A DNA stretch of 64,000 nt from Escherichia phage EcWhh-1: the sequence record MH791409.1. One strand, given 5' to 3'. A program made the translations under genes and the position numbers. Each line of letters opens with the position of its first letter. Position 1 is the first letter of the stretch. The notes under the pieces are model-generated. The model had not been told where the DNA came from, ran no database searches, and worked only from the letters and a program-made list of their open reading frames with translations. Of the stretch, positions 47,984-64,000 are shown one piece after another.

Positions 47984-47991
47984 TATAAATA
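47984..47991 (+). promoter_or_regulatory. late promoter TATAAATA box (gene 13)
   Basis: Exact TATAAATA ~22 nt upstream of gene 13. Confidence 0.6.
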
Positions 47992-48012
47992 CGGTTATTA
48001 GAGGAATAAAAC

Positions 48013-48948
48013 ATGGCAAGTGAATCATATAACCCTAAGCAACTCAAGGACGCTATTCTGCGTCGCCTGGGTGCGCCGATTACAAATATTGAAGTAACTA
48101 CTGACCAAGTATATGATTGCATCCAGCGGGCTCTAGAGCTCTACGGCGAATACCATTATAACGGGTATAACAAAGGTTATCAGGCTTTTTATATTGGCCA
48201 TGACGATGAAGAAAAATTCCGTAATGGCGTATTCGACCTTAAAGGACGTAATATATTTGCAGTAACACAAATTTTGAGAACTAACGTTGGCTCTTTAACA
48301 TCTATGGACGGGCAAGCAACTTATCCATGGTTTACAGATTTTGTACTAGGTTTGGCAGGTATTAATGGTGGTCTTGGGTCTTCATGTAATAGTTTTGGAC
48401 CTAATGCCTTCGGCGCCGACCTTGGCTATTTTACACAATTAATGCAATATCGTTCTATGATGCAGGACCTTTTGGTTCCGCTGCCTGATTATTGGTATAA
48501 TGATGCCACTGAACAATTGAAGGTAATGGGCAACTTTGTTAAAGGCGACTTTATTGTAATTGAAGTTTATACCCGTTCATTTAATGGCGTTGATTCCATG
48601 GTCGGGAATACAGCAGGATATGGATATGCTTCTGGTGGCTGTGACGAAAATGAATGGAGTCCTGGGGCTATTTGGGACAATCCTGCACGCCGAATTTCAG
48701 GAATGAGAGCTGGTGAGGACCTTGGACTACAAGATGGTGCGTATAATAACCGTTGGGTCAAAGATTACGCTACGGCATTAGTTAAAGAGGTCAATGGTAA
48801 TATTTTAGCCAAACACCAAGGTATGCAATTAGCAGGCGGAACCACTGTAGATGGCATTCGATTGATTGAAGAAGCTCGTTTAGAAAAAGAACGTCTTCGC
48901 GAAGAATTAGATTTGCTCGACCCACCAACACCTATTTTAATTGGATAA
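48013..48948 (+). CDS. 13: neck protein gp13
   Basis: Synteny and size (311 aa). Confidence 0.8.
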
Positions 48949-48950
48949 TT

Positions 48951-49724
48951 ATGGCTACTTTCGATTCGAGTTTATTTGCTAAGCTGGAAAATAACACCGG
49001 TTATGCTAACACGAACGAAACTGAAATAATGAACCCTTTCGTCAACTTTTATCGCCATGAGAACACTCAAACATTGGCCGATGCTTTAGTTGCTGAGTCT
49101 ATTCAAATGCGTGGTATCGAGCTTTATTATATACCACGCGAATACGTTAATCCTGACCAGCTATTTGGCGAAGACCTTCAGAACAAATTTACTAAAGCCT
49201 GGAAGTTTGCAGGTTATTTGGATTCCTTTGAAGGTTATTCCGGTGACAATACTTATTTCAGTAAGTTCGGTATGATGGTTAATGATGAGGTAACAATCAC
49301 AATTAACCCTAACCTTTTTAAACATCAATGCAACGGCACTGAACCTGTTTCAGGTGATTTGATTTATTTCCCAATGGACAACAGCCTATTTGAAATTAAC
49401 TGGGTTCAACCTTACGACCCATTCTATCAAGTCGGTACAAACGTCCAGCGTCGCATTACTGCTACCAAGTTCATTTATAATGGTGAAGAACTTCGTCCTG
49501 AATTACAGAGAAATGAAGGCATTAATATTCCTGAATTCAGTGAGCTTGATTTAATGCCTGTTAAGAATATTGATGGGTTGGCTGATATCTCTGATATCCA
49601 ATATGAAGAGGTTAATGAGATTAATGCTGAAGCGGCGGAATTCGTACACCCTTATGTAGTGATTAACGGTAGAGGAGAAGATGCTCCTCCTACAGCATTT
49701 GATGATGCTTTTTTAGATGATTAA
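48951..49724 (+). CDS. 14: neck protein gp14
   Basis: Synteny and size (257 aa). Confidence 0.8.
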
Positions 49725-49727
49725 ATA

Positions 49728-49752
49728 ATACATGGCGCATCCCGCGCCATTT
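49728..49752 (+). terminator. hairpin (ATGGCGCatccGCGCCAT)
   Basis: Stem-loop with T-run after gene 14. Confidence 0.5.
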
Positions 49753-49760
49753 TAGGAGGT

Positions 49761-50626
49761 TTGATGTTTGGACATTGGTATAATAGTTCGCTACGTCGCT
49801 ATATTGTTTTGATGGGTGATTTATTTTCCCATGTTCAAGTAGCACGTCAAAGAGAAGATACAGGGCTTAAATTTATTAAGGTTCCTATTACGTATGCTTC
49901 TAAAGAAAGATTTATGGCTAATTTAGGTAAATGGACGGCAGTACAGAATATCCCAAATCCTAATATGACGCCAAAAGAAAGGGCTGAACAAAAAGCTAAG
50001 GTGGAAACTGTTCTTCCACGTATGAACCTCCAAATGGTTGACATGCTTTATAACTCACAATACAAAACAGCTCTTCAAAATAGAACACAAATTCAATTTG
50101 AGAATGGGGACCCTCGGAAACGAGTCAGCCAATATTCTCCTACTCCAGTAAAAATGATTTTTGAACTGGGTATTTACACTAGAACTCAAGATGATATGTT
50201 CCAGATTGTGGAACAAATTATGCCGTATTTCCAACCTCACTTTAATACAACAATTACCGAACTCTATACAAACGAAATTAAATTTGACCGTGATATTCGT
50301 ATTGTGTTCCAATCTATAGCAATGGACGAACAATTAGAAGGCGATACCACTTCACGTCGTCGCTTGGAATGGTCTATGATGTTTGAGGTTAACGGATGGC
50401 TATATCCTCCTGTTAAAGAAATGGAAGGCGAAATCAAAACCATTTATCTTGATTTCTTTGCCAACTCTAAAGAACTCGCTCCTGAGGGTAATTTTGAATC
50501 GGTTGATAGCGAAGTAGTTCCTAGAGGTGTAGAAGAAAAAGAATGGGACGGTAAATCCATTCAAACATATTCACAAGATATTCCGGTGCCTGTTGAACCA
50601 GAACCTCCAGCACCAAGGAGAAACCC

Positions 50627-50630
<4 letters not shown>
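49761..50630 (+). CDS. 15: tail sheath stabiliser/terminator gp15
   Basis: Strong similarity to recalled T4 gp15 ([12 protein letters not shown]...LMGDLFS). Confidence 0.9.
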
Positions 50631-52940
<2,310 letters not shown>

Positions 52941-52969
52941 ACAATAAAGCATAACCAAGAGGATTCAAA

Positions 52970-54952
52970 ATGGCTTTATTATCACCGGGCATTGAGCTCA
53001 AAGAAACGTCCGTACAGAGTACTGTCGTTCGTAACGCAACGGGTCGTGCAGCGCTGGTTGGTAAATTCCAGTGGGGCCCTGCTTTCCAGGTAACTCAGAT
53101 TACCAATGAAGTTGAACTGGTTGATTTGTTTGGAGGTCCTAATAACGAAGTAGCAGATTACTTTATGTCTGGTATGAACTTCCTCCAGTATGGTAATGAC
53201 CTTCGTACAGTTCGTGTCGTTAGTCGCGAATTTGCTAAAAACGCATCTCCTATCGCTGGTAATATTGAAACCACTATTACTACGGCTGGTTCCAACTATG
53301 CTGTAGGCGATAAAATTAATATTAAATATAACCAAACTGTAGTCGAATCTGAAGGTCGTGTGACTTCTGTAGATACAGACGGTAAAATTCTTTCTGTGTT
53401 TATTCCGTCAGCAAAAATTATTGCTTACGCCCGTTCTTTAAACCAGTATCCTACCCTAGGCCCGGCTTGGACTGCTGAAGTTACTTCTGCCTCTTCAGGT
53501 GTTTCCGGTACTATTACCGTTGGCCGAATTGTTACCGATTCCGGTATTCTTTTGACCGAAGCCGAGAATAGTGAAGAAGCTATTACTTCTCTTGAATTCC
53601 AAGCGGCCCTTAAGAAATTTGCTATGCCAGGCGTAGTGGCCCTTTATCCTGGTGAAATTGGTTCTACTCTGGAAGTAGAAATCGTTTCTAAAGCAGCTTA
53701 TGAAGCCGGTTCTTCTAAAATGTTGGATGTTTATCCTGGTGGCGGTACCCGTGCTTCTATTGCCAAGGCAGTATTTAATTACGGCCCACAAACAGATGAC
53801 CAATACGCAATTATCGTTCGTCGTGATGGCGCTATCGTAGAATCCGTCGTACTTTCTACCAAAGAAGGTGAAAAAGACGTTTACGGTAATAACATTTATC
53901 TTGACGATTATTTCGCTAAAGGTACTTCTAATTACATCTATGCGACTTCTCTGAACTGGCCGAAAGGATTTAGCGGTATCATTAATCTGTCTGGTGGTAT
54001 TTCCGCCAACGATAAAGTTACTGCAGGCGATTTGATGCAGGGTTGGGATTTGTTTGCCGACCGTGAAGCACTCCATATTAACCTGCTTATTGCTGGTGCT
54101 GTTGCTGGTGAAGGCGATGAAGTGGCTTCTACTGTTCAGAAACACGTTGTGAGTATTGCTGATGAACGTCAGGATTGCTTAGCATTTATTTCTCCTCCTA
54201 AAGGTCTGTTGGTTAACGTTCCACTAACTCGTGCAGTAGATAACCTTATCGACTGGCGTACCGGTGCCGGTAATTTCGATGCCAACAACATGAACATCAG
54301 TACTACTTATGCCGCTATTGATGGTAACTATAAATATCAATACGACAAATATAACGACGTAAACCGTTGGGTACCACTGGCTGCCGATTTGGCTGGTTTG
54401 TGTGCACGTACTGATGATGTGTCTCAGCCTTGGATGTCTCCTGCCGGTTATAACCGTGGTCAGATTCTTAACGTTCTGAAATTGGCAATTGAACCACGTC
54501 AAGCACAACGTGACCGCATGTACCAGGAAGCTATTAATCCGGTTGTTGGTTTTGCTGGTGGTGATGGTTTCGTATTGTTTGGTGATAAGACTGCAACTAA
54601 AGTTCCATCTCCGATGGACCACATTAACGTTCGCCGTCTGTTCAACATGCTTAAGAAAAATATCGGTGATGCCTCTAAATATAAACTGTTTGAATTGAAC
54701 GATAACTTCACTCGTTCAAGCTTCCGTATGGAAGTTTCTCAGTACTTAGATGGTATTAAGGCACTTGGTGGGATTTATGAAGGACGTGTGGTTTGTGATA
54801 CTACAGTGAACACCCCTGCGGTTATCGACCGTAATGAGTTTATTGCTAATATCTATGTTAAACCTGCTCGTTCTATTAACTACATCACGTTGAACTTCGT
54901 TGCAACGAGCACTGGTGCTGATTTTGATGAATTGATTGGACCTTTAGTATAA
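52970..54952 (+). CDS. 18: tail sheath protein gp18
   Basis: Synteny and size (660 aa). Confidence 0.9.
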   Translation: MALLSPGIELKETSVQSTVVRNATGRAALVGKFQWGPAFQVTQITNEVELVDLFGGPNNEVADYFMSGMNFLQYGNDLRTVRVVSREFAKNASPIAGNIETTITTAGSNYAVGDKINIKYNQTVVESEGRVTSVDTDGKILSVFIPSAKIIAYARSLNQYPTLGPAWTAEVTSASSGVSGTITVGRIVTDSGILLTEAENSEEAITSLEFQAALKKFAMPGVVALYPGEIGSTLEVEIVSKAAYEAGSSKMLDVYPGGGTRASIAKAVFNYGPQTDDQYAIIVRRDGAIVESVVLSTKEGEKDVYGNNIYLDDYFAKGTSNYIYATSLNWPKGFSGIINLSGGISANDKVTAGDLMQGWDLFADREALHINLLIAGAVAGEGDEVASTVQKHVVSIADERQDCLAFISPPKGLLVNVPLTRAVDNLIDWRTGAGNFDANNMNISTTYAAIDGNYKYQYDKYNDVNRWVPLAADLAGLCARTDDVSQPWMSPAGYNRGQILNVLKLAIEPRQAQRDRMYQEAINPVVGFAGGDGFVLFGDKTATKVPSPMDHINVRRLFNMLKKNIGDASKYKLFELNDNFTRSSFRMEVSQYLDGIKALGGIYEGRVVCDTTVNTPAVIDRNEFIANIYVKPARSINYITLNFVATSTGADFDELIGPLV

Positions 54953-55076
54953 TCTATTATCCCAGGCTGTAATATAAAGAACCTAAAACCATTATACCAT
55001 GTGTTTGGTTACAGCGTACATCACGTAGAATTGCGCCTGGGATTGATTAACTATCAGGAATATGATTTATCAACTG

Positions 55077-55084
55077 TTATAAAT
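55077..55084 (+). promoter_or_regulatory. late promoter TATAAATA box (gene 19)
   Basis: Exact TATAAATA upstream of gene 19. Confidence 0.55.
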
Positions 55085-55137
55085 AAATTAATCAGAACGT
55101 TCCTGGTGTGGCCAGGAACTGACTTATGAGGCATCCC

Positions 55138-55629
55138 ATGGAGTTGACAGATATCACTCGTGCGTTTGAGTCAGGTGACTTTGCACGCCCTAACCTTTTC
55201 GAAGTGGAAATTCCATTTCTTGGTAAAAACTTTAGCTTTAAATGTAAAGCAGCACCTATGCCGGCAGGCATTGTAGAAAAAGTACCGGTTGGCTACATGA
55301 ACCGTAAAATTAACGTAGCTGGCGACCGTACGTTTGATGATTGGACCATTACCATTTACAACGATGATGCCCATGACACCCGTCAGGCAATTGTTGATTG
55401 GCAAAACCTCTGCCATGGTATGACCAATGAAATTACAGGTGCAGCACCTGCAGAATATAAGAAACAAGCAGTTGTTCGTCAGTTCCATCGTGACGGTAAG
55501 ACTGTGACTAAAGAAGTTACAATTTATGGCTTATGGCCTACTAACGTTGGTGAAGTCCAGATGGATTGGGATTCAAACAACGAGGTAGAAACTTTCGAAT
55601 CTACGTTCGCTATCGATTGGTGGGAATGA
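55138..55629 (+). CDS. 19: tail tube protein gp19
   Basis: Strong similarity to recalled T4 gp19 (TRAFESGDFARPNLF...); second in-frame ATG gives 163 aa as in T4. Confidence 0.9.
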   Translation: MELTDITRAFESGDFARPNLFEVEIPFLGKNFSFKCKAAPMPAGIVEKVPVGYMNRKINVAGDRTFDDWTITIYNDDAHDTRQAIVDWQNLCHGMTNEITGAAPAEYKKQAVVRQFHRDGKTVTKEVTIYGLWPTNVGEVQMDWDSNNEVETFESTFAIDWWE

Positions 55630-55630
55630 G

Positions 55631-55638
55631 TATAAATA
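55631..55638 (+). promoter_or_regulatory. late promoter TATAAATA box (gene 20)
   Basis: Exact TATAAATA ~50 nt upstream of gene 20. Confidence 0.55.
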
Positions 55639-55641
55639 GAA

Positions 55642-55662
55642 TTATAAAGGAGCTTCGGCTCC
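55642..55662 (+). terminator. hairpin (GGAGCttcgGCTCC)
   Basis: Stem-loop after gene 19. Confidence 0.45.
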
Positions 55663-55686
55663 TTATCCCATTCATCGGAGACTCTA

Positions 55687-57261
55687 ATGGCAAACTTTAA
55701 TACAATATTAAGTTTTCTTAAGCCATGGGCTAATGAAGACGAAAAAGAATATAAACAACAAATTAATAACAATTTAGAGTCTGTCACTGCACCTAAGCTT
55801 GATGATGGCGCTCGCGAAATTGAAACCCAAGAGCAAAATATTCCTTATAACGCTCTTATGCAACAAATGTTTGGTAGTAATGAGCCTGAAGTTAAAAACA
55901 CCAGGGAACTCATTGATACCTACCGTAATTTGATGAACAACTATGAAGTCGATAACGCAGTTCAAGAAATTGTGTCTGACGCTATTGTCTACGAGGATGA
56001 TAAAGAAGTAGTTGCATTAAATTTAGACGGGACAGAGTTCAGTCAATCAATTAAAGATAAAATTTTGGCTGAATTTAGTGAAGTTTTGAATCTTTTAAAT
56101 TTCCAACGTAAAGGCACTGACCATTTCCAACGTTGGTATGTAGACTCGAGAATATTCTTTCATAAAATTATAAACCCTAAAAAAATGAAAGATGGCGTAC
56201 AAGAGCTTCGACGCTTAGACCCGCGCCAAGTCCAATACATTCGTGAAATTGTTACACGTATGGAAGATGGTGTTAAAATTGTAGATGGGTACCGCGAGTT
56301 TTTCGTTTACGATACTGGTCATGAAAGTTATTGTGCTGATGGACGCATTTATTCAGCTGGGACTAAAGTTAAAATTCCTCGTGCCGCTGTAGTTTATGCA
56401 CATTCTGGATTATTAGATTGTTGTGGTAAAAACATCATTGGCTATTTGCAACGTGCTATTAAGCCTGCAAACCAGCTTAAATTGATGGAAGACGCAATGG
56501 TCATCTACCGTATTACACGTGCTCCTGACCGTCGTGTGTTTTATATCGATACAGGTAATATGCCTTCACGTAAGGCTGCAGCACAAATGCAACATATCAT
56601 GAACACGATGAAAAACCGTGTGGTATATGATGCTTCGACCGGTAAAATTAAAAACCAGCAACATAATATGTCAATGACCGAAGACTATTGGTTGCAACGT
56701 CGAGACGGTAAAGCGGTAACAGAAGTTGATACCATGCCTGGTGCCACAGGTATGAGTGATATGGATGACGTTCTTTATTTCCGCACAGCACTTTATCGTG
56801 CGCTGCGTATCCCAGAGTCACGTATCCCTAGTGAATCTAATTCCGGTGTTATGTTTGATGCTGGTACGGCTATAACTCGTGATGAGTTGAAATTTGCTAA
56901 ATGGATTCGACAGCTCCAAAATAAATTTGAAGAAATTTTCTTAGACCCATTAAAAACAAACCTCATTCTTAAAAAGATTATTACAGAAGATGAGTGGGAA
57001 AGAGAAATAAATAATATTAAAGTTACGTTCAACCGTGATAGCTATTTCAGTGAAATGAAAGATGCGGAAATCATGGAACGCAGAATCAATATGCTAACGA
57101 TGGCTGAACCATTTATTGGTAAGTATATTTCGCATCAAACGGCTATGAAAGATTTCCTTCAGATGACTGACGAAGAAATTAATCAAGAAGCTAAGCAAAT
57201 TGAAGAAGAGTCTAAAGAGGCTCGTTTCCAAAACCCAGATGAAGAAGAAGAGGATTTCTAA
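55687..57261 (+). CDS. 20: portal vertex protein gp20
   Basis: Synteny and exact T4 length (524 aa). Confidence 0.9.
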
Positions 57262-57527
57262 TGGAAGATTTAATCGAAGCTATTAAATCAAACGACCTCG
57301 TAGCAGTTCGTAAAGCAGCAGGCCCGCTTATCGAATCTCGAGTAGCCGCTTTGATTGAAGCCCGTAAAGCAGAAATTGCTCGCTCCGTTATGATTGAAGG
57401 CGAAGAAGCCGATAAAGATGACGAAGACGAAGATAAAGACGAAAAATCCGATAAAGCAGATAAGAAAGACAAAAAAGAATCTGACGATGCGGATGAAGGT
57501 GATGAAGACGACGAGGACGACGAATAA
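57261..57527 (+). CDS. 67: prohead core protein gp67
   Basis: Small protein with highly acidic C-terminus between 20 and 68. Confidence 0.8.
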
Positions 57528-57955
57528 TGTTCCTTATCCCTGATGATTACGAATTAACTCTAGAAAGCGTAGAGGCCAAAATTCCAGAAGCACAGGGACG
57601 TTTTGCTACTCTTTCTGAAGCCCTCGAGAAAAGCGATATAAATAATCTTGTAGAGAACATGATTGCTGATGGTGATATCGATACAGCTATCGCCATTGCC
57701 TCTTTGAATGAAAATATGGCTCTTAACGAATTTATCGTTAAGCACGTCTCTTCTAAAGGTGAGCTTACTCGTACTAAAGATATTAAAACCCGTCAACGCA
57801 ACGCTTATCAAACGACTGGGTTGTCTAAAGCAAAACGCCGTCAGATTGCTCGCAAAGCGTCTAAAACCAAACGTGCTAACCCGTCTACTCAAGTACGTGC
57901 TGAACGTAAGCGTAAGAAAGCTCGTTCTAAACGTAAAGCCTTTGGACTTAACTAA
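57527..57955 (+). CDS. 68: prohead core protein gp68
   Basis: Synteny and size (142 aa), basic C-terminus. Confidence 0.8.
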
Positions 57956-58590
57956 TGAAACCTGAATTGCTCATCGAACATTGGGGACAACCAGGTGAAA
58001 TTATCGATGGGGTTCCGATGTTGGAATCTCATGATGGAAAAGATTCTGGACTTGCCCCGGGCCTTTATATAGAAGGCATATTCATGCAAGCCGAAGTGGT
58101 TAACCGTAATAAACGCCTTTATCCAAAACCTATTTTGGAAAAAGCTGTTGCTGATTATATGGCAGAACAGGTTGCTACTAAACAAGCTTTAGGAGAATTA
58201 AATCATCCGCCTCGTGCTAACGTCGACCCTATGCAAGCCGCTATTATTATTGAAGATATGTGGTGGAAAGGTAATGACGTTTATGGACGTGCTCGTATTA
58301 TTGAAGGCGACCATGGTCCTGGTGATAAACTAGCTGCTAATATTAGAGCCGGTTGGGTGCCTGGTGTTAGTTCTCGTGGTCTAGGTTCTTTAACCGAAAC
58401 CAATAAAGGATATAAGCGTGTAAACGAAGGTTATAAATTAACCGTCGGTGTTGATGCAGTATGGGGCCCATCTGCTCCTGATGCTTATGTAACTCCTAAA
58501 CAAATTACAGAATCACAAACGGTAGATACCGATACCAGTGCCGATGACGCCTTTATGGCTCTCGCAGAGGCCATGAAAAAAGCGTTATAA
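57955..58590 (+). CDS. 21: prohead core protease gp21
   Basis: Strong similarity to recalled T4 gp21 (LLIEHWGQPGEIIDGVPMLESHDGKD). Confidence 0.95.
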   Translation: MKPELLIEHWGQPGEIIDGVPMLESHDGKDSGLAPGLYIEGIFMQAEVVNRNKRLYPKPILEKAVADYMAEQVATKQALGELNHPPRANVDPMQAAIIIEDMWWKGNDVYGRARIIEGDHGPGDKLAANIRAGWVPGVSSRGLGSLTETNKGYKRVNEGYKLTVGVDAVWGPSAPDAYVTPKQITESQTVDTDTSADDAFMALAEAMKKAL

Positions 58591-58593
58591 ATA
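58586..58593 (+). promoter_or_regulatory. late promoter TATAAATA box (gene 22)
   Basis: Exact TATAAATA ~28 nt upstream of gene 22. Confidence 0.55.
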
Positions 58594-58620
58594 TTATTAT
58601 CTAAACAACAGGACTACAAA

Positions 58621-59436
58621 ATGCTTAAAGAACAACTGATCGCCGAAGCACAGAATATTGATGCTTCCGTTGCTCTTGACAGTATTTTCGAATCAGTTAA
58701 TATTTCTCCGGAAGCAAAAGAAACTTTCGGCACTGTATTCGAAGCTACCGTCAAGCAACACGCCGTTAAACTGGCTGAATCTCACATCGCTAAAATCGCT
58801 GAAAAAGCGGAAGAAGAAGTTGAGAAAAATAAAGAAGAAGCTGAAGAAAAAGCTGATAAGAAAATCCAAGAAGCTGCCGGTCGTTTCCTTGACCACGTCG
58901 CTAAAGAATGGATGGCTGAAAACCAGCTGGCTGTTGATAAAGGTATTAAAGCTGAACTGTTCGAATCCATGTTGATGGGTATGAAAGAACTGTTTGTTGA
59001 ACACAATGTGGTTGTTCCAGAAGAAGCAGTGGATGTTGTTGCTGAAATGGAAGAAGAACTCCAAGAGCAGAAAGATGAAACCGCTCGTCTGTTCGAAGAA
59101 GTTGGTAAGCGTGATGCATATATTAATTACGTACAGCGTGAAGTTGCATTGACTGAAGCAACTAAAGACCTGACTGAATCTCAGAAAGAAAAAGTTAGTT
59201 CTCTGGTAGAAGGCATGGATTATTCCGATGCATTTGGTAAAAAAATTGGCGCTATCGTTGAAATGGTTAAAGGCCAGACTGACGTTGAAAAACCAATCAC
59301 CGAAGCCGCTATAAATAAAACTGAAGACGATGCTGCAGCACTGAATTATATTTCGGAAGCAGTTGAAGAAAAAGGCGCTAAGCCTACCCTGTCCTTCGCG
59401 GACCTGTCTGCAATCGCAGCATCTCGAATTTCTTAA
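58621..59436 (+). CDS. 22: prohead core scaffold protein gp22
   Basis: Glu/Lys-rich helical scaffold, synteny, size 271 aa. Confidence 0.9.
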   Translation: MLKEQLIAEAQNIDASVALDSIFESVNISPEAKETFGTVFEATVKQHAVKLAESHIAKIAEKAEEEVEKNKEEAEEKADKKIQEAAGRFLDHVAKEWMAENQLAVDKGIKAELFESMLMGMKELFVEHNVVVPEEAVDVVAEMEEELQEQKDETARLFEEVGKRDAYINYVQREVALTEATKDLTESQKEKVSSLVEGMDYSDAFGKKIGAIVEMVKGQTDVEKPITEAAINKTEDDAAALNYISEAVEEKGAKPTLSFADLSAIAASRIS

Positions 59437-59457
59437 TTTAATAAGGTTATACAACAC

Positions 59458-61017
59458 ATGAAAAAGAATGCATTAGTTCAAAAATGGTCCGCTCTGCTGG
59501 AAAACGAAGCTCTTCCTGAAATCGTTGGCGCTTCTAAACAAGCTATCATCGCTAAAATTTTCGAAAACCAGGAACAAGACATCCTGACTGCTCCGGAATA
59601 CCGTGACGAAAAAATCTCTGAAGCATTTGGTTCTTTCCTGACCGAAGCTGAAATCGGTGGTGACCACGGTTATGATGCTACCAATATCGCAGCTGGCCAG
59701 ACCTCTGGTGCTGTAACTCAGATTGGGCCGGCAGTAATGGGTATGGTTCGTCGTGCTATTCCTCATCTGATTGCTTTTGATATTTGTGGTGTTCAGCCTC
59801 TGAATAACCCTACCGGTCAGGTATTTGCACTGCGTGCAGTATATGGTAAAGACCCTATCGCTGCAGGCGCTAAAGAAGCTTTCCATCCGATGTATGCTCC
59901 GAACGCTATGTTCTCTGGTCAGGGTGCTGCTGAAACTTTCGAAGCACTGGCTGCAAGCAAAGTTCTGGAAGTTGGTAAAATTTATTCTCACTTCTTCGAA
60001 GCTACCGGTTCTGCACACTTCCAGGCTGTTGAAGCTGTAACCGTTGATGCAGGCGCTACTGATGCCGCTAAACTGGATGCTGCTGTTACCGCTCTGGTTG
60101 AAGCTGGTCAGCTGGCTGAAATCGCTGAAGGTATGGCTACTTCTATCGCAGAACTTCAGGAAGGTTTCAACGGTTCTACCGATAACCCGTGGAACGAAAT
60201 GGGCTTCCGCATCGACAAACAAGTTATCGAAGCTAAATCTCGTCAGCTGAAAGCAAGCTACTCTATCGAACTGGCACAGGATCTTCGTGCAGTACACGGT
60301 ATGGATGCAGATGCTGAACTGTCCGGTATCCTTGCTACCGAAATTATGCTCGAAATCAACCGTGAAGTTATCGATTGGATTAACTACTCTGCACAGGTTG
60401 GTAAATCTGGTATGACCAACACCGTTGGCGCTAAAGCTGGTGTGTTTGACTTCCAGGACCCGATTGATATCCGTGGTGCTCGTTGGGCCGGTGAGAGCTT
60501 TAAAGCCCTTCTGTTCCAGATTGATAAAGAAGCAGCCGAAATCGCTCGTCAGACCGGTCGTGGTGCTGGTAACTTCATCATCGCTTCCCGTAACGTAGTT
60601 AACGTACTGGCTGCAGTTGATACTTCTGTAAGTTATGCAGCTCAAGGTCTGGGTCAGGGTTTCAACGTTGACACAACCAAAGCAGTATTTGCCGGTGTTC
60701 TTGGTGGTAAATATCGTGTTTACATCGACCAGTATGCTCGTTCCGATTACTTCACCATCGGTTATAAAGGTTCCAACGAAATGGACGCAGGTATCTACTA
60801 TGCTCCGTACGTTGCACTGACTCCGCTGCGTGGTTCCGATCCGAAGAACTTCCAACCGGTAATGGGCTTCAAAACTCGTTACGGTATCGGTATTAACCCG
60901 TTCGCTGACCCAGCTGCTCAGGCGCCTACCAAACGTATTCAGAATGGTATGCCTGACATCGTTAACAGCCTCGGTCTGAATGGTTACTTCCGTCGCGTAT
61001 ATGTTAAAGGTATCTAA
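59458..61017 (+). CDS. 23: major capsid protein gp23
   Basis: Very high similarity to recalled T4 gp23 along the whole length. Confidence 0.97.
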   Translation: MKKNALVQKWSALLENEALPEIVGASKQAIIAKIFENQEQDILTAPEYRDEKISEAFGSFLTEAEIGGDHGYDATNIAAGQTSGAVTQIGPAVMGMVRRAIPHLIAFDICGVQPLNNPTGQVFALRAVYGKDPIAAGAKEAFHPMYAPNAMFSGQGAAETFEALAASKVLEVGKIYSHFFEATGSAHFQAVEAVTVDAGATDAAKLDAAVTALVEAGQLAEIAEGMATSIAELQEGFNGSTDNPWNEMGFRIDKQVIEAKSRQLKASYSIELAQDLRAVHGMDADAELSGILATEIMLEINREVIDWINYSAQVGKSGMTNTVGAKAGVFDFQDPIDIRGARWAGESFKALLFQIDKEAAEIARQTGRGAGNFIIASRNVVNVLAAVDTSVSYAAQGLGQGFNVDTTKAVFAGVLGGKYRVYIDQYARSDYFTIGYKGSNEMDAGIYYAPYVALTPLRGSDPKNFQPVMGFKTRYGIGINPFADPAAQAPTKRIQNGMPDIVNSLGLNGYFRRVYVKGI

Positions 61018-61021
61018 TATA

Positions 61022-61048
61022 AACCTTATTATGGGAGACTTCGGTCTC
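61022..61048. terminator. bidirectional hairpin (GGGAGACttcgGTCTCCC) between convergent genes
   Basis: Perfect stem between gp23 stop and stop of minus-strand 61066..61332. Confidence 0.6.
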
Positions 61049-61065
61049 CCATTCTTGTTTCTATA

Positions 61066-61332
61066 CTATGCAATCTTAACACGACGGTTGATGATATCAC
61101 GGAAGTCAATACGATTTTCTTGGATTTTCAGCCAGTTACCAGATTTGTCTTTGGTATGGGTAGAGTATTCACCGTTCCACCAGAAGTCGGTAGCATAAGC
61201 CATGGCTTCGTATTTCTTAACTAGTGCATTCACTGCATTACCGTTAGGATTGGAACCATATTTTTCTACCAGGGCTTTGATGTCTTTATCAAGAGCGGAA
61301 AGAGTAGTACGAATAAAGTTTAACTTGTTCAT
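61066..61332 (-). CDS. hypothetical protein, 88 aa, antisense to the late cluster
   Basis: ATG at 61332 with GAGGAGA SD; early promoter element just upstream; occupies the 23-24 interval. Confidence 0.55.
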   Translation of the reverse strand: MNKLNFIRTTLSALDKDIKALVEKYGSNPNGNAVNALVKKYEAMAYATDFWWNGEYSTHTKDKSGNWLKIQENRIDFRDIINRRVKIA

Positions 61333-61350
61333 TTTTAATCTCCTCATGTT

Positions 61351-61392
61351 TTGATAGGTCTATAGTAACATGTGATAACCTTGCTGTAAACA
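61351..61392 (-). promoter_or_regulatory. early promoter element
   Basis: GATAGGTCTATAGTAACAT plus TGTAAACA. Confidence 0.55.
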
Positions 61393-61397
61393 ACTTT

Positions 61398-61405
61398 TAT
61401 AAATA
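61398..61405 (+). promoter_or_regulatory. late promoter TATAAATA box (gene 24)
   Basis: Exact TATAAATA ~28 nt upstream of gene 24. Confidence 0.6.
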
Positions 61406-61433
61406 AACATATACCCTCAATAAGGAAAGCGCA

Positions 61434-62714
61434 ATGGCAAAGATTAACGAATTACTGCGCGAGTCAACAACTACTTCTAGCAACTCATTGGGTCGCCCTA
61501 ATCTTGTTGCTTTGACCCGTGCTACAACCAAATTGATTTACCGTGATATTATTGCTGAACAACGTACTAGCCAGCCTATTGCTGCATTGTATGGTGTCAA
61601 ATATCTTACTCCTGATAATGAATTTAGCTTCCAAACTGGTGCCGTTTATGGTGGTGAAGTTGGTTCTAAAGACCGTGAAACTATCCCGGAACTCACAGAT
61701 AAGGCCCAGGCTATTGCCAAGGGCGAATATTTCAAGTATCAGAACATAGTTTATAAGGCTCTTCAAGCAAGCCCACTCGCATCCACTAGCGCTACAGAAT
61801 TGGCTGATGCCCTTCAAGAAGGTTTGGTGTCATTAACATGTCGTCTGGTTCCTGATGCGGCTCACACAGAGAAATTCGAAGCAGGTGATGTTGAAATTAG
61901 TAATGCAGTATTCCAGGTTAATAAATGGAACGCACCTGTTAAGTCTCGTAAACTTAAAACCGCTTTGACTGTAGAACTAGCCCAAGACATGGAATCCAAT
62001 GGCTTCGACGCCCCTGCGTTCTTAGAAGACCTTTTAGCCACTGTAATGGCTGATGAAATCAATAAAGACGTACTACAATCCTTGATTACCGTATCTAAAC
62101 GTTACAAAGTAACTGGTGTATCTGATAATGGTATTATTGATTTGTCCTATAATTCTGCCCCAGAAAGTGCACGTAAATTATATGAAATGGTTTGTGAGAT
62201 GAATTCTGAAATTCAGAAAACCACTTCTTATTCAGGTACGTTTGTTGTCGCATCTAGTCGTGCTGCTGCTATGCTCGCTGGTTCAGGTTGGTTGAAACAT
62301 AAACCAGAAGATGAAGCTTGGCTCCCAGAAACTGCTTACGGTTATTTGATTAATGGATTGCCTGTATTCTGTGATGTTAATAGTCCTTTAGATTATGTTA
62401 TCGTAGGCGTTAAAGAAGATTACGGCGGTAATGAAGTAGTTGGTTCTATTTTCTATGCCCCGTATACCGAAGGTCTGGATTTAGACGACCCAGAACATGT
62501 TGGTGCGTATAAAGTTATTGTAGACCCTGATAGTTTACAACCGGCTATTTCTCTGATGGTTCGTTATGCACTTTCAGCAAACCCATATACCGTTGCTAAA
62601 GATGATAAAGAAGCTCGTGTTATAGACGCAACTAATATGGATTTAATGGCAGGTCAGAGTAACATGTCTTATCTGCTTGGTGTTAAACTTCCTCCTATTA
62701 TTTACGAGGCATAA
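61434..62714 (+). CDS. 24: head vertex protein gp24
   Basis: High similarity to recalled T4 gp24 (MAKINELLRESTTT...). Confidence 0.95.
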   Translation: MAKINELLRESTTTSSNSLGRPNLVALTRATTKLIYRDIIAEQRTSQPIAALYGVKYLTPDNEFSFQTGAVYGGEVGSKDRETIPELTDKAQAIAKGEYFKYQNIVYKALQASPLASTSATELADALQEGLVSLTCRLVPDAAHTEKFEAGDVEISNAVFQVNKWNAPVKSRKLKTALTVELAQDMESNGFDAPAFLEDLLATVMADEINKDVLQSLITVSKRYKVTGVSDNGIIDLSYNSAPESARKLYEMVCEMNSEIQKTTSYSGTFVVASSRAAAMLAGSGWLKHKPEDEAWLPETAYGYLINGLPVFCDVNSPLDYVIVGVKEDYGGNEVVGSIFYAPYTEGLDLDDPEHVGAYKVIVDPDSLQPAISLMVRYALSANPYTVAKDDKEARVIDATNMDLMAGQSNMSYLLGVKLPPIIYEA

Positions 62715-63998
62715 ATGAAAAAGATTAATGCATTAATACAAGAATCAACTTTGACGGCGGCCAACCAGGTCGCCCGTCCTAATCTTCTTTCATATACCCA
62801 GGCAACTAATAAAAGAATTTTTAAAGCCCTTGTTGCTGAACAAAAAACTACTCAACCTGTTGCAGCATTATATGGTGTCCGTGTTTTAAACCCAGACGAT
62901 AAAATGACTTATCTCGGCGGAGCCACTTTTGCAGGTGAAATTGGTATGTTCGAACGTAAAAACATTCCTGAGTTCACCGATAAAGACGAAGCATATGCTG
63001 TTGGCGATATGTTCCAATTCGAAAGTGTGGTTTTCAAGGTATTAGAAGCTTCTCCGTTTGCAGGAACAACTGAAACCGATTTGAGTGAAGTTATTTCAGA
63101 AGCTATTGCCGCGGGCCATATTCGTATGATGTCTGATGCAGCCTTTACCAATAAATTTGAAAAAGGCCATCCTGAGATTGCTGAAGCAGGGTTCCGTATT
63201 GATAAGTGGCAGACTGAAGTTAAATCGCGTAAACTTAAAACTTCTTTGACTGTGGAACTGGCCCAGGATTTAGAATCCAACGGGTTTAATGCACCGGACT
63301 TTATAGACAATATTTTGGCTATTCAAATGGCTGAAGAAATTAATAAAGACGTATTACAGTCCTTAATTACAGTAAGTTCTCGTTTTAAAGTCCAAGGAGT
63401 TTCTGAGAAAGGTGTCTTGAACTTAACAGACCCACAATACGATAACGCCCAAGACCGAGCACGTACCTTGTATTACTATATGTGTGAAATGAATTCTGCT
63501 GTTCAACGCCAGACTTCGTTTGCAGGTACTTATGCAGTAGCTTCTTCTCGCTGCGCTGCTATTTTAGCTGCATCCGGTTGGGTTGAGAAAAAAGAAGACC
63601 AAGACGAATTAGCTTATGGCGTATTAAAGAACGGTCTACCACTTTATGCCGATATGAATAGCCCGTGTGATTATGTTATTGTCGGTGTAAATGCTCAGAT
63701 GGGTGAAGGGCAGACGGTCGCATCTTTGTATTATGCGCCTTATACGGAAGGGCTCGAAGAGGTTGATGATGAAGGTGATACTTCAGTAGGTGAATTCAAG
63801 GTTATTGTAGACCCGGATTCATTGCAACCTACCATATCTTTATTGGCTCGGTATGCATTGACTGCGAATCCTTATACCGTCGCTAAAGACGACAAAGAAG
63901 CTCGTATTATTGATGGTGCGGATATGGACAAAATGGCTAATCAAAGTCAATTGAGTTCTTATCTTGGTGTAAAACTTCCTCCATTGGATAAAAACTAA
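62715..63998 (+). CDS. second gp24-like vertex protein paralog
   Basis: 427 aa, roughly half identical to the adjacent gp24 over full length; start abuts gp24 stop. Confidence 0.85.
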   Translation: MKKINALIQESTLTAANQVARPNLLSYTQATNKRIFKALVAEQKTTQPVAALYGVRVLNPDDKMTYLGGATFAGEIGMFERKNIPEFTDKDEAYAVGDMFQFESVVFKVLEASPFAGTTETDLSEVISEAIAAGHIRMMSDAAFTNKFEKGHPEIAEAGFRIDKWQTEVKSRKLKTSLTVELAQDLESNGFNAPDFIDNILAIQMAEEINKDVLQSLITVSSRFKVQGVSEKGVLNLTDPQYDNAQDRARTLYYYMCEMNSAVQRQTSFAGTYAVASSRCAAILAASGWVEKKEDQDELAYGVLKNGLPLYADMNSPCDYVIVGVNAQMGEGQTVASLYYAPYTEGLEEVDDEGDTSVGEFKVIVDPDSLQPTISLLARYALTANPYTVAKDDKEARIIDGADMDKMANQSQLSSYLGVKLPPLDKN

Positions 63999-64000
63999 AA

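Follow-up and report, generated by a model that had tools for sequence, protein, structure and literature searches.

A probable two-gene late operon for paralogous capsid vertex proteins in Escherichia phage EcWhh-1 and related T4-like phages

The capsid vertex protein gp24 of phage T4 originated by duplication of a capsid gene of the HK97 fold and its subsequent specialisation (PMC10580926). In T4 the gp21 prohead protease cuts gp24 after Glu10 and so removes 10 residues from its N-terminus (PMC9546572). Some relatives of T4 carry a second gene of this type next to the first. A tandem duplication of the capsid vertex protein gene was described in 2019 for the Salmonella phages S16 and Melville, in one annotation sentence and without functional work (PMC6486254). 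In the GenBank record of phage JS98 (EF469154) two adjacent genes have been named 24a (EpJS98_0174) and 24b (EpJS98_0175) for years, both with the product name "gp24 head vertex protein". Other related records use the labels "capsid vertex protein I / II" or "head vertex protein (x2)". Reportedly, the 2004 J Bacteriol paper on JS98 also mentions a duplication of gene 24 in its abstract. Because of the JS98 annotation and the S16 and Melville publication, the tandem pair is already known; its observation by itself changes nothing, and the remaining interest lies in the job of the second copy. Here we analyse the pair in Escherichia phage EcWhh-1 (MH791409.1), within a stretch of 64,000 nucleotides which we call the window and in which the two genes occupy positions 61,434 to 63,998; we name them 24a and 24b as in JS98. 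We consider it quite probable that two paralogous capsid vertex proteins are expressed here from a two-gene late operon, and we infer that 24b most likely provides a second subunit of the vertices, one that is not redundant.

The initial annotation had placed here two open reading frames (ORFs) of 426 and 427 amino acids (aa), and we found both of them intact, with exactly the same coordinates. Gene 24a (61434..62714, + strand) encodes the 426-aa capsid vertex protein, and gene 24b (62715..63998, + strand) encodes the second vertex-type paralogue of 427 aa. The two products are collinear and, when compared by BLASTP, show 56% identity and 76% positives over their full length, with 10 gap positions (E = 3e-179), in line with the earlier estimate that they are roughly half identical. 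The junction, read directly as gcaTAAATGaaa, agrees with the description of a start abutting a stop: there are 0 nt between the 24a stop and the 24b start. Compared with JS98, positions 61000-64000 of the window are 99.5% identical over the full length, with the same locus and the same gene order, which in the JS98 record reads 20-67-68-21-22-23-(small ORF)-24a-24b and then convergent rnlB. At the protein level 24b is 100% and 24a 99.5% identical to the JS98 copies, so that there is no difference of substance. The closest record of all is that of phage MN04, with 99.6% identity over positions 61000-64000. The pair of S16 has the same order, a then b, after gene 23, and the same tight junction, its 24a being 87% and its 24b 84% identical to the window copies; S16 and Melville differ in belonging to the genus Gelderlandvirus and in infecting a different host.

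Both copies belong to the Gp23 family PF07068, scoring 326.8 bits (24a) and 329.8 bits (24b) for a cut-off of 24.4, and both match PHROG 138. For both, the best solved relative is T4 gp24 (1YUE, 5VF3, 7VS5), with E = 2.5e-199 for 24a and 4e-150 for 24b, and the description of the pair as a tandem, diverged duplicate of vertex gene 24 is thereby upheld. The match of 24b to solved gp23 is far weaker, with E about 1e-11. With 70% identity, 24a is the T4 gp24 orthologue; 24b shares 57% identity with T4 gp24 and 28% with JS98 gp23, and it can be aligned to 1YUE along its full length. An AlphaFold2 model of 24b, of moderate confidence (predicted local distance difference test 69, predicted template modelling score 0.69), was compared with solved chains using Foldseek: its template modelling scores are 0.73-0.84 with T4 gp24 chains versus 0.50-0.59 with gp23 chains. 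The model matches 5vf3_a, 1yue and 7vrt_he over 408-426 alignment columns and presents the HK97-type fold with the T4-specific insertion (I) domain. The sequence around the protease site is preserved too: the N-terminus of 24a, MAKINELLRE/S, is identical to the region of the gp21-protease cleavage site in T4, that of 24b is MKKINALIQE/S, and the pattern L-[LI]-x-E/S is kept in all 15 of the 24b proteins examined. T4 gp24 and both copies have the fold, the length, the motif for protease cleavage, the position in the genome and the late expression signal in common. The difference is that T4 fills all 11 of its non-portal vertices with the product of a single gene, whereas the window keeps a second paralogue at 57% identity; in T4 the single gene 24 is indeed followed by a 334-aa rnlB ORF, as the initial annotation had stated. 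The split between gp23 and gp24 offers a parallel, since there also an HK97-fold capsid gene was duplicated and specialised for another position of the lattice, but it is much deeper (about 25-28% identity) and its division of labour between hexamers and pentamers is established. No solved capsid with two vertex paralogues was present among the PDB structures searched.

Signals around the pair point to a two-gene late operon, with what would be one late transcript and coupled translation. After gene 23, a terminator-like hairpin on the + strand (ATGGGAGAC-TTCG-GTCTCCCAT, then TCTTGTTTCT; 61031..61052) divides the end of the gene 23 transcript from the gene 24 unit; it was detected in a terminator scan of the JS98 locus (L001 4032-4053, with an offset to the window of 56999) and read in the window. 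A pattern search of the window yielded a T4-type late promoter motif, TATAAATA, on the + strand at 61398-61405, 29 nt upstream of the 24a start codon, which is the sole such motif near the pair. From 61406 to 64000 the same search gave no further TATAAATA, so none inside 24a, and a scan of the matching JS98 stretch gave no convincing promoter or terminator between 24a and 24b; the suggestion that the second copy has no promoter of its own is thus borne out, and 24b would depend on the transcript of 24a. Two Shine-Dalgarno elements were read from the + strand: AGGA (61423..61426), 7 nt before the ATG of 24a, and GAGG (62706..62709), within the last codons of 24a and 5 nt before the ATG of 24b, a layout typical of translational coupling. 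In 14 of 14 related pairs the offset at the junction lies between -4 and +1 nt and a purine-rich element is found upstream. Directly 3' of the 24b stop, the scan of the JS98 locus placed another hairpin, which is cut by the end of the window. Transcription would then start at the late promoter at 61398, 24a would be translated from its own ribosome-binding site and 24b, because its ATG directly follows the 24a stop, through coupling or re-initiation from the GAGG inside the end of 24a. The 24b protein would enter the prohead as gp24 does, lose its first 10 residues to the gp21 protease and supply, together with 24a, part of the pentameric non-portal vertices.

Over the whole window the TATAAATA motif has 16 matches for 7.1 expected; 11 of these 16 are on the + strand, at 47984-61405, where they precede head and tail genes, the arrangement expected of late promoters of the T4 type. 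In JS98 the two reading frames meeting at the 24a stop and 24b start (window 62712-62717) are the same (1281 nt apart), and read-through of the TAA would fuse the proteins. A read-through fusion was considered and rejected, as it is not conserved among relatives, and the shared reading frame is probably incidental since the junction offset varies from one relative to another. Codon adaptation, slightly lower in 24b (0.38) than in 24a (0.45) and equal to that of gp20 and gp21, says little.

The divergence between orthologues, estimated by the Nei-Gojobori method, gave ratios of nonsynonymous to synonymous substitution rates (dN/dS) of 0.03-0.07 for 24a and 0.04-0.065 for 24b, and over 91 genome pairs the dN of a and the dN of b are correlated with r = 0.90 and a mean ratio of 1.0. 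On these estimates both copies are under strong purifying selection and change at equal rates, so that 24b is functional and non-redundant where it is present. With an intact ORF under purifying selection, the worry that the second copy could be a pseudogene falls away. Within a genome, 24a and 24b are separated by a dN of about 0.38 and a saturated dS. Gene conversion between the copies was also considered and rejected: the two JS98 copies share no nucleotide run longer than 14 nt, their identity at synonymous codons stays level from end to end, and with dS saturated between a and b there has been no recent conversion.

Whether close relatives carry the duplication had been left as a question by the initial annotation, together with the proposal to compare both copies with T4-like genomes; close and distant relatives do carry it. 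A tblastn search with 24b found a 24b-type gene in 116 phage records, with 65-100% identity, compared with 1413 records having a full-length gp24-like match. Carriers are the JS98-like Dhakavirus, the VR phages and Gelderlandvirus (Salmonella phages S16, STML-198 and Melville), and further Kanagawavirus (Enterobacter and Kosakonia phages), Klebsiella phages F48 and Marfa, and Roskildevirus (Erwinia phage Cronus). In every locus inspected, metagenomic contigs included, the 24b-type gene directly follows the 24a-type gene. The second copy represents an old paralogue lineage moving with 24a as a fixed tandem pair in at least the Dhakavirus, Kanagawavirus, Gelderlandvirus, Roskildevirus, VR-phage and Marfa/F48 groups. 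In 87 independently sequenced phage records the same 3 kb is covered to at least 80%, which disposes of the concern that the junction might be an artefact of assembly.

The origin of the pair was studied with neighbour-joining trees, using 200-500 bootstraps and five distance corrections. The 24b proteins, that of the window included, form a monophyletic clade with 92-100% bootstrap, and all 24a proteins form another with T4, Karamvirus and the metagenomic contig L040 (96-100%); T4, Karamvirus and one metagenomic 24a group together with 84-96%. The earlier view of a tandem, diverged duplicate thus stands, except that the event is not recent, since 24b branches outside the group of 24a and T4 gp24. 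A recent duplication with a fast-evolving 24b was rejected: a and b never appear as sisters (0% bootstrap), and the outgroup gp24 proteins of Krischvirus and Pseudotevenvirus are equidistant from a and b, at about 44%, so that the 24b branch is old and not accelerated. The simplest reading is that the pair would already have been present in the ancestor of the clade of 24a, T4 and Karamvirus, and that 24b would have been lost later at this locus in the T4 and Karamvirus lines; the single-copy state of T4 is probably a secondary loss. It is conceivable, if somewhat doubtful, that 24b is instead a gp24 gene of a diverged T4-like phage, acquired through recombination and inserted beside the resident gene 24. 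Its position outside the 24a, T4 and Karamvirus clade, never as sister to 24a, and the age of its unaccelerated branch speak for such an acquisition, as do mosaic patterns of identity among relatives, in which recombination is seen to act around 24a and 24b. However, no phage with a 24b-type gene as its sole gene 24 occurs among 120 database representatives or 2423 phage records, hence no donor lineage is known. The subtree of a, moreover, largely mirrors that of b, the Cronus group being basal in both and the remaining groups branching in the same order, which, with the correlated distances, agrees with a single old event, then joint descent and a few losses. As far as the sequences tell, the data appear compatible alike with a very old tandem duplication and a very old acquisition.

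The mosaic patterns can be illustrated by the identities to JS98, which are discordant between the copies in VR26 (a 90%, b 95%), QL01 (a 95%, b 91%) and the metagenomic mgL041 (a 86%, b 93%). In mgL042, 24a groups with Marfa and 24b with L035 and L037. Discordances of this kind suggest that recombination has had breakpoints within 24a or 24b or between them, in the gene 24a/24b regions of L008, L010, L041 and L042.

Comparing the two lineages residue by residue, we found 37 sites that are at least 85% conserved within each copy and different between copies. They are enriched at residues 21-72 (11 observed versus 5.7 expected, P = 0.011), that is, in the N-arm and linker 1 of the I domain. In T4, whose domain roles we took from the literature, the linkers of the I domain mediate contacts inside a capsomer and from one capsomer to another (PMC9546572); the differences of 24b therefore sit in contact-making elements, and by analogy with T4 its linker and N-arm changes may tune the contacts of 24b. 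Six 24b states, L34R, Y57V, F66Y, Y72F, T204I and E335Q, replace residues which do not vary in 24a, single-copy gp24 or the outgroups. The loop at T4 residues ~348-359, which is disordered in vertex-bound T4 gp24 (PMC9546572), is longer and different in most 24b proteins, the window 24b having 3 residues more. In charge or isoelectric point, no difference between a and b was consistent across relatives.

The six replacements at otherwise invariant positions, the longer and different loop and the long conservation of 24b without converging on 24a could also be expected of a capsid-fold protein with another job, such as a special position adjacent to the portal or restricted to the apex, a role in assembly or nucleation without being kept in the virion, or that of a decoy for a capsid-sensing host defence. 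We regard this as improbable, since 24b has kept the full architecture, length and protease motif of gp24 and has no added domain. The genomes with 24b are also of the size of T4 (158-176 kb), and nothing in head size therefore hints at another design of the capsid; an arms-race decoy in particular fits poorly with a dN/dS near 0.05. Still harder to credit is that 24b would be a redundant spare, a decaying gene or an assembly artefact: natural single-copy states do exist, in T4, Karamvirus and contig L040, as one would expect for a spare copy, but 24b is intact in all of the more than 20 loci read, is carried by all those 116 records and is kept beyond synonymous saturation under the selection described above, while the same junction recurs in independent isolates and in metagenomes.

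Our preferred reading, an operon for two vertex proteins, has several points weighing against it. All 55 gp24 subunits of T4 are reported to be conformationally alike (PMC9546572), so that geometry offers no evident reason for having two kinds of subunit. T4 and Karamvirus, nested among the 24a genes (94%), are single-copy, and so is the contig L040 (Logan SRR10097265, 118,878 bp), whose gene 24 nests in the 24a core clade with 100% bootstrap. There the gene 24 region (L040 3001-4330) contains no 24b and is directly followed by a clean terminator hairpin (AAAGGAGACC-GTGA-GGTCTCCTTTTTT) and rnlB; the protein has the 24a state at 35 of the 37 discriminating sites and the 24b state at 0, and L040 is, judged by its gene content, a natural loss of the second copy. 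Given these three single-copy cases, a single vertex protein can suffice for a head of T4 size, which speaks against an absolute need for 24b. The trees rely on neighbour-joining of protein distances only. Finally, the literature yielded no virion proteome, no N-terminal sequencing, no transcript data and no structure for pair-carrying phages, the JS98 genome papers lying outside this search, and for this reason we infer the expression and cleavage of 24b and its place in the virion. Papers on phages F48 and Kosakonia 305 contain nothing on vertex proteins. The proteome of a Klebsiella phage was discarded as evidence on the pair, since that phage belongs to the single-copy genus Jiaodavirus.

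Beyond the operon itself, we can imagine that three paralogues of the HK97 fold, gp23, gp24a and gp24b, make up heads of the JS98 type. The latter two, as vertex proteins, would then occupy different, non-equivalent classes of vertices of the prolate head (for example the apex versus the two rings of five, or portal-proximal versus distal vertices) or form defined mixed pentamers, and T4 would be a simplified descendant without this division of labour; this proposal is speculative and, in our opinion, rather unlikely to hold as a whole. The question left by the pair is why more than 100 T4-like phages keep two vertex proteins that are strongly selected while T4 builds a head of the same size with one. 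T4 is also able to replace gp24 with mutant gp23. The structure or the virion proteome of a pair-carrying phage would tell if the corners of a capsid can be chemically differentiated. If the single copy of T4 is a loss, as is probable, this constitutes a small but useful correction to the use of T4 as the ancestral layout. Because gp24 reportedly contributes to the resistance of T4 to acid, heat and proteases (PMC10580926), the vertex pair could also matter for the stability of therapeutic phages.

The neighbourhood of the pair shows some variation among relatives. Between gene 23 and 24a, the window contains on the - strand a 93-aa ORF (61066-61347) corresponding to JS98 orf173, a hypothetical protein, and in T4, IME08 and IME341 the slot between genes 23 and 24 holds a segD homing endonuclease gene. 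Because the former phages have orf173 and the latter segD at this place, the gap between genes 23 and 24 is a variable insertion point. On the other side of the pair, Erwinia phage Cronus (L029 4827-6342) and a related metagenomic contig (L038 4890-6427) have two extra genes on the + strand right after 24b, one for a protein of about 340 aa annotated as a tail fiber protein and one for a 165-aa protein annotated as a Hoc-like head decoration, both absent from JS98. Roughly at the position of hoc in JS98, the contigs L040 (6570-7281) and L041 (7238-7281) encode on the + strand collagen-repeat proteins (PF01391) of 488 and 570 aa, which may be alternative head decorations.

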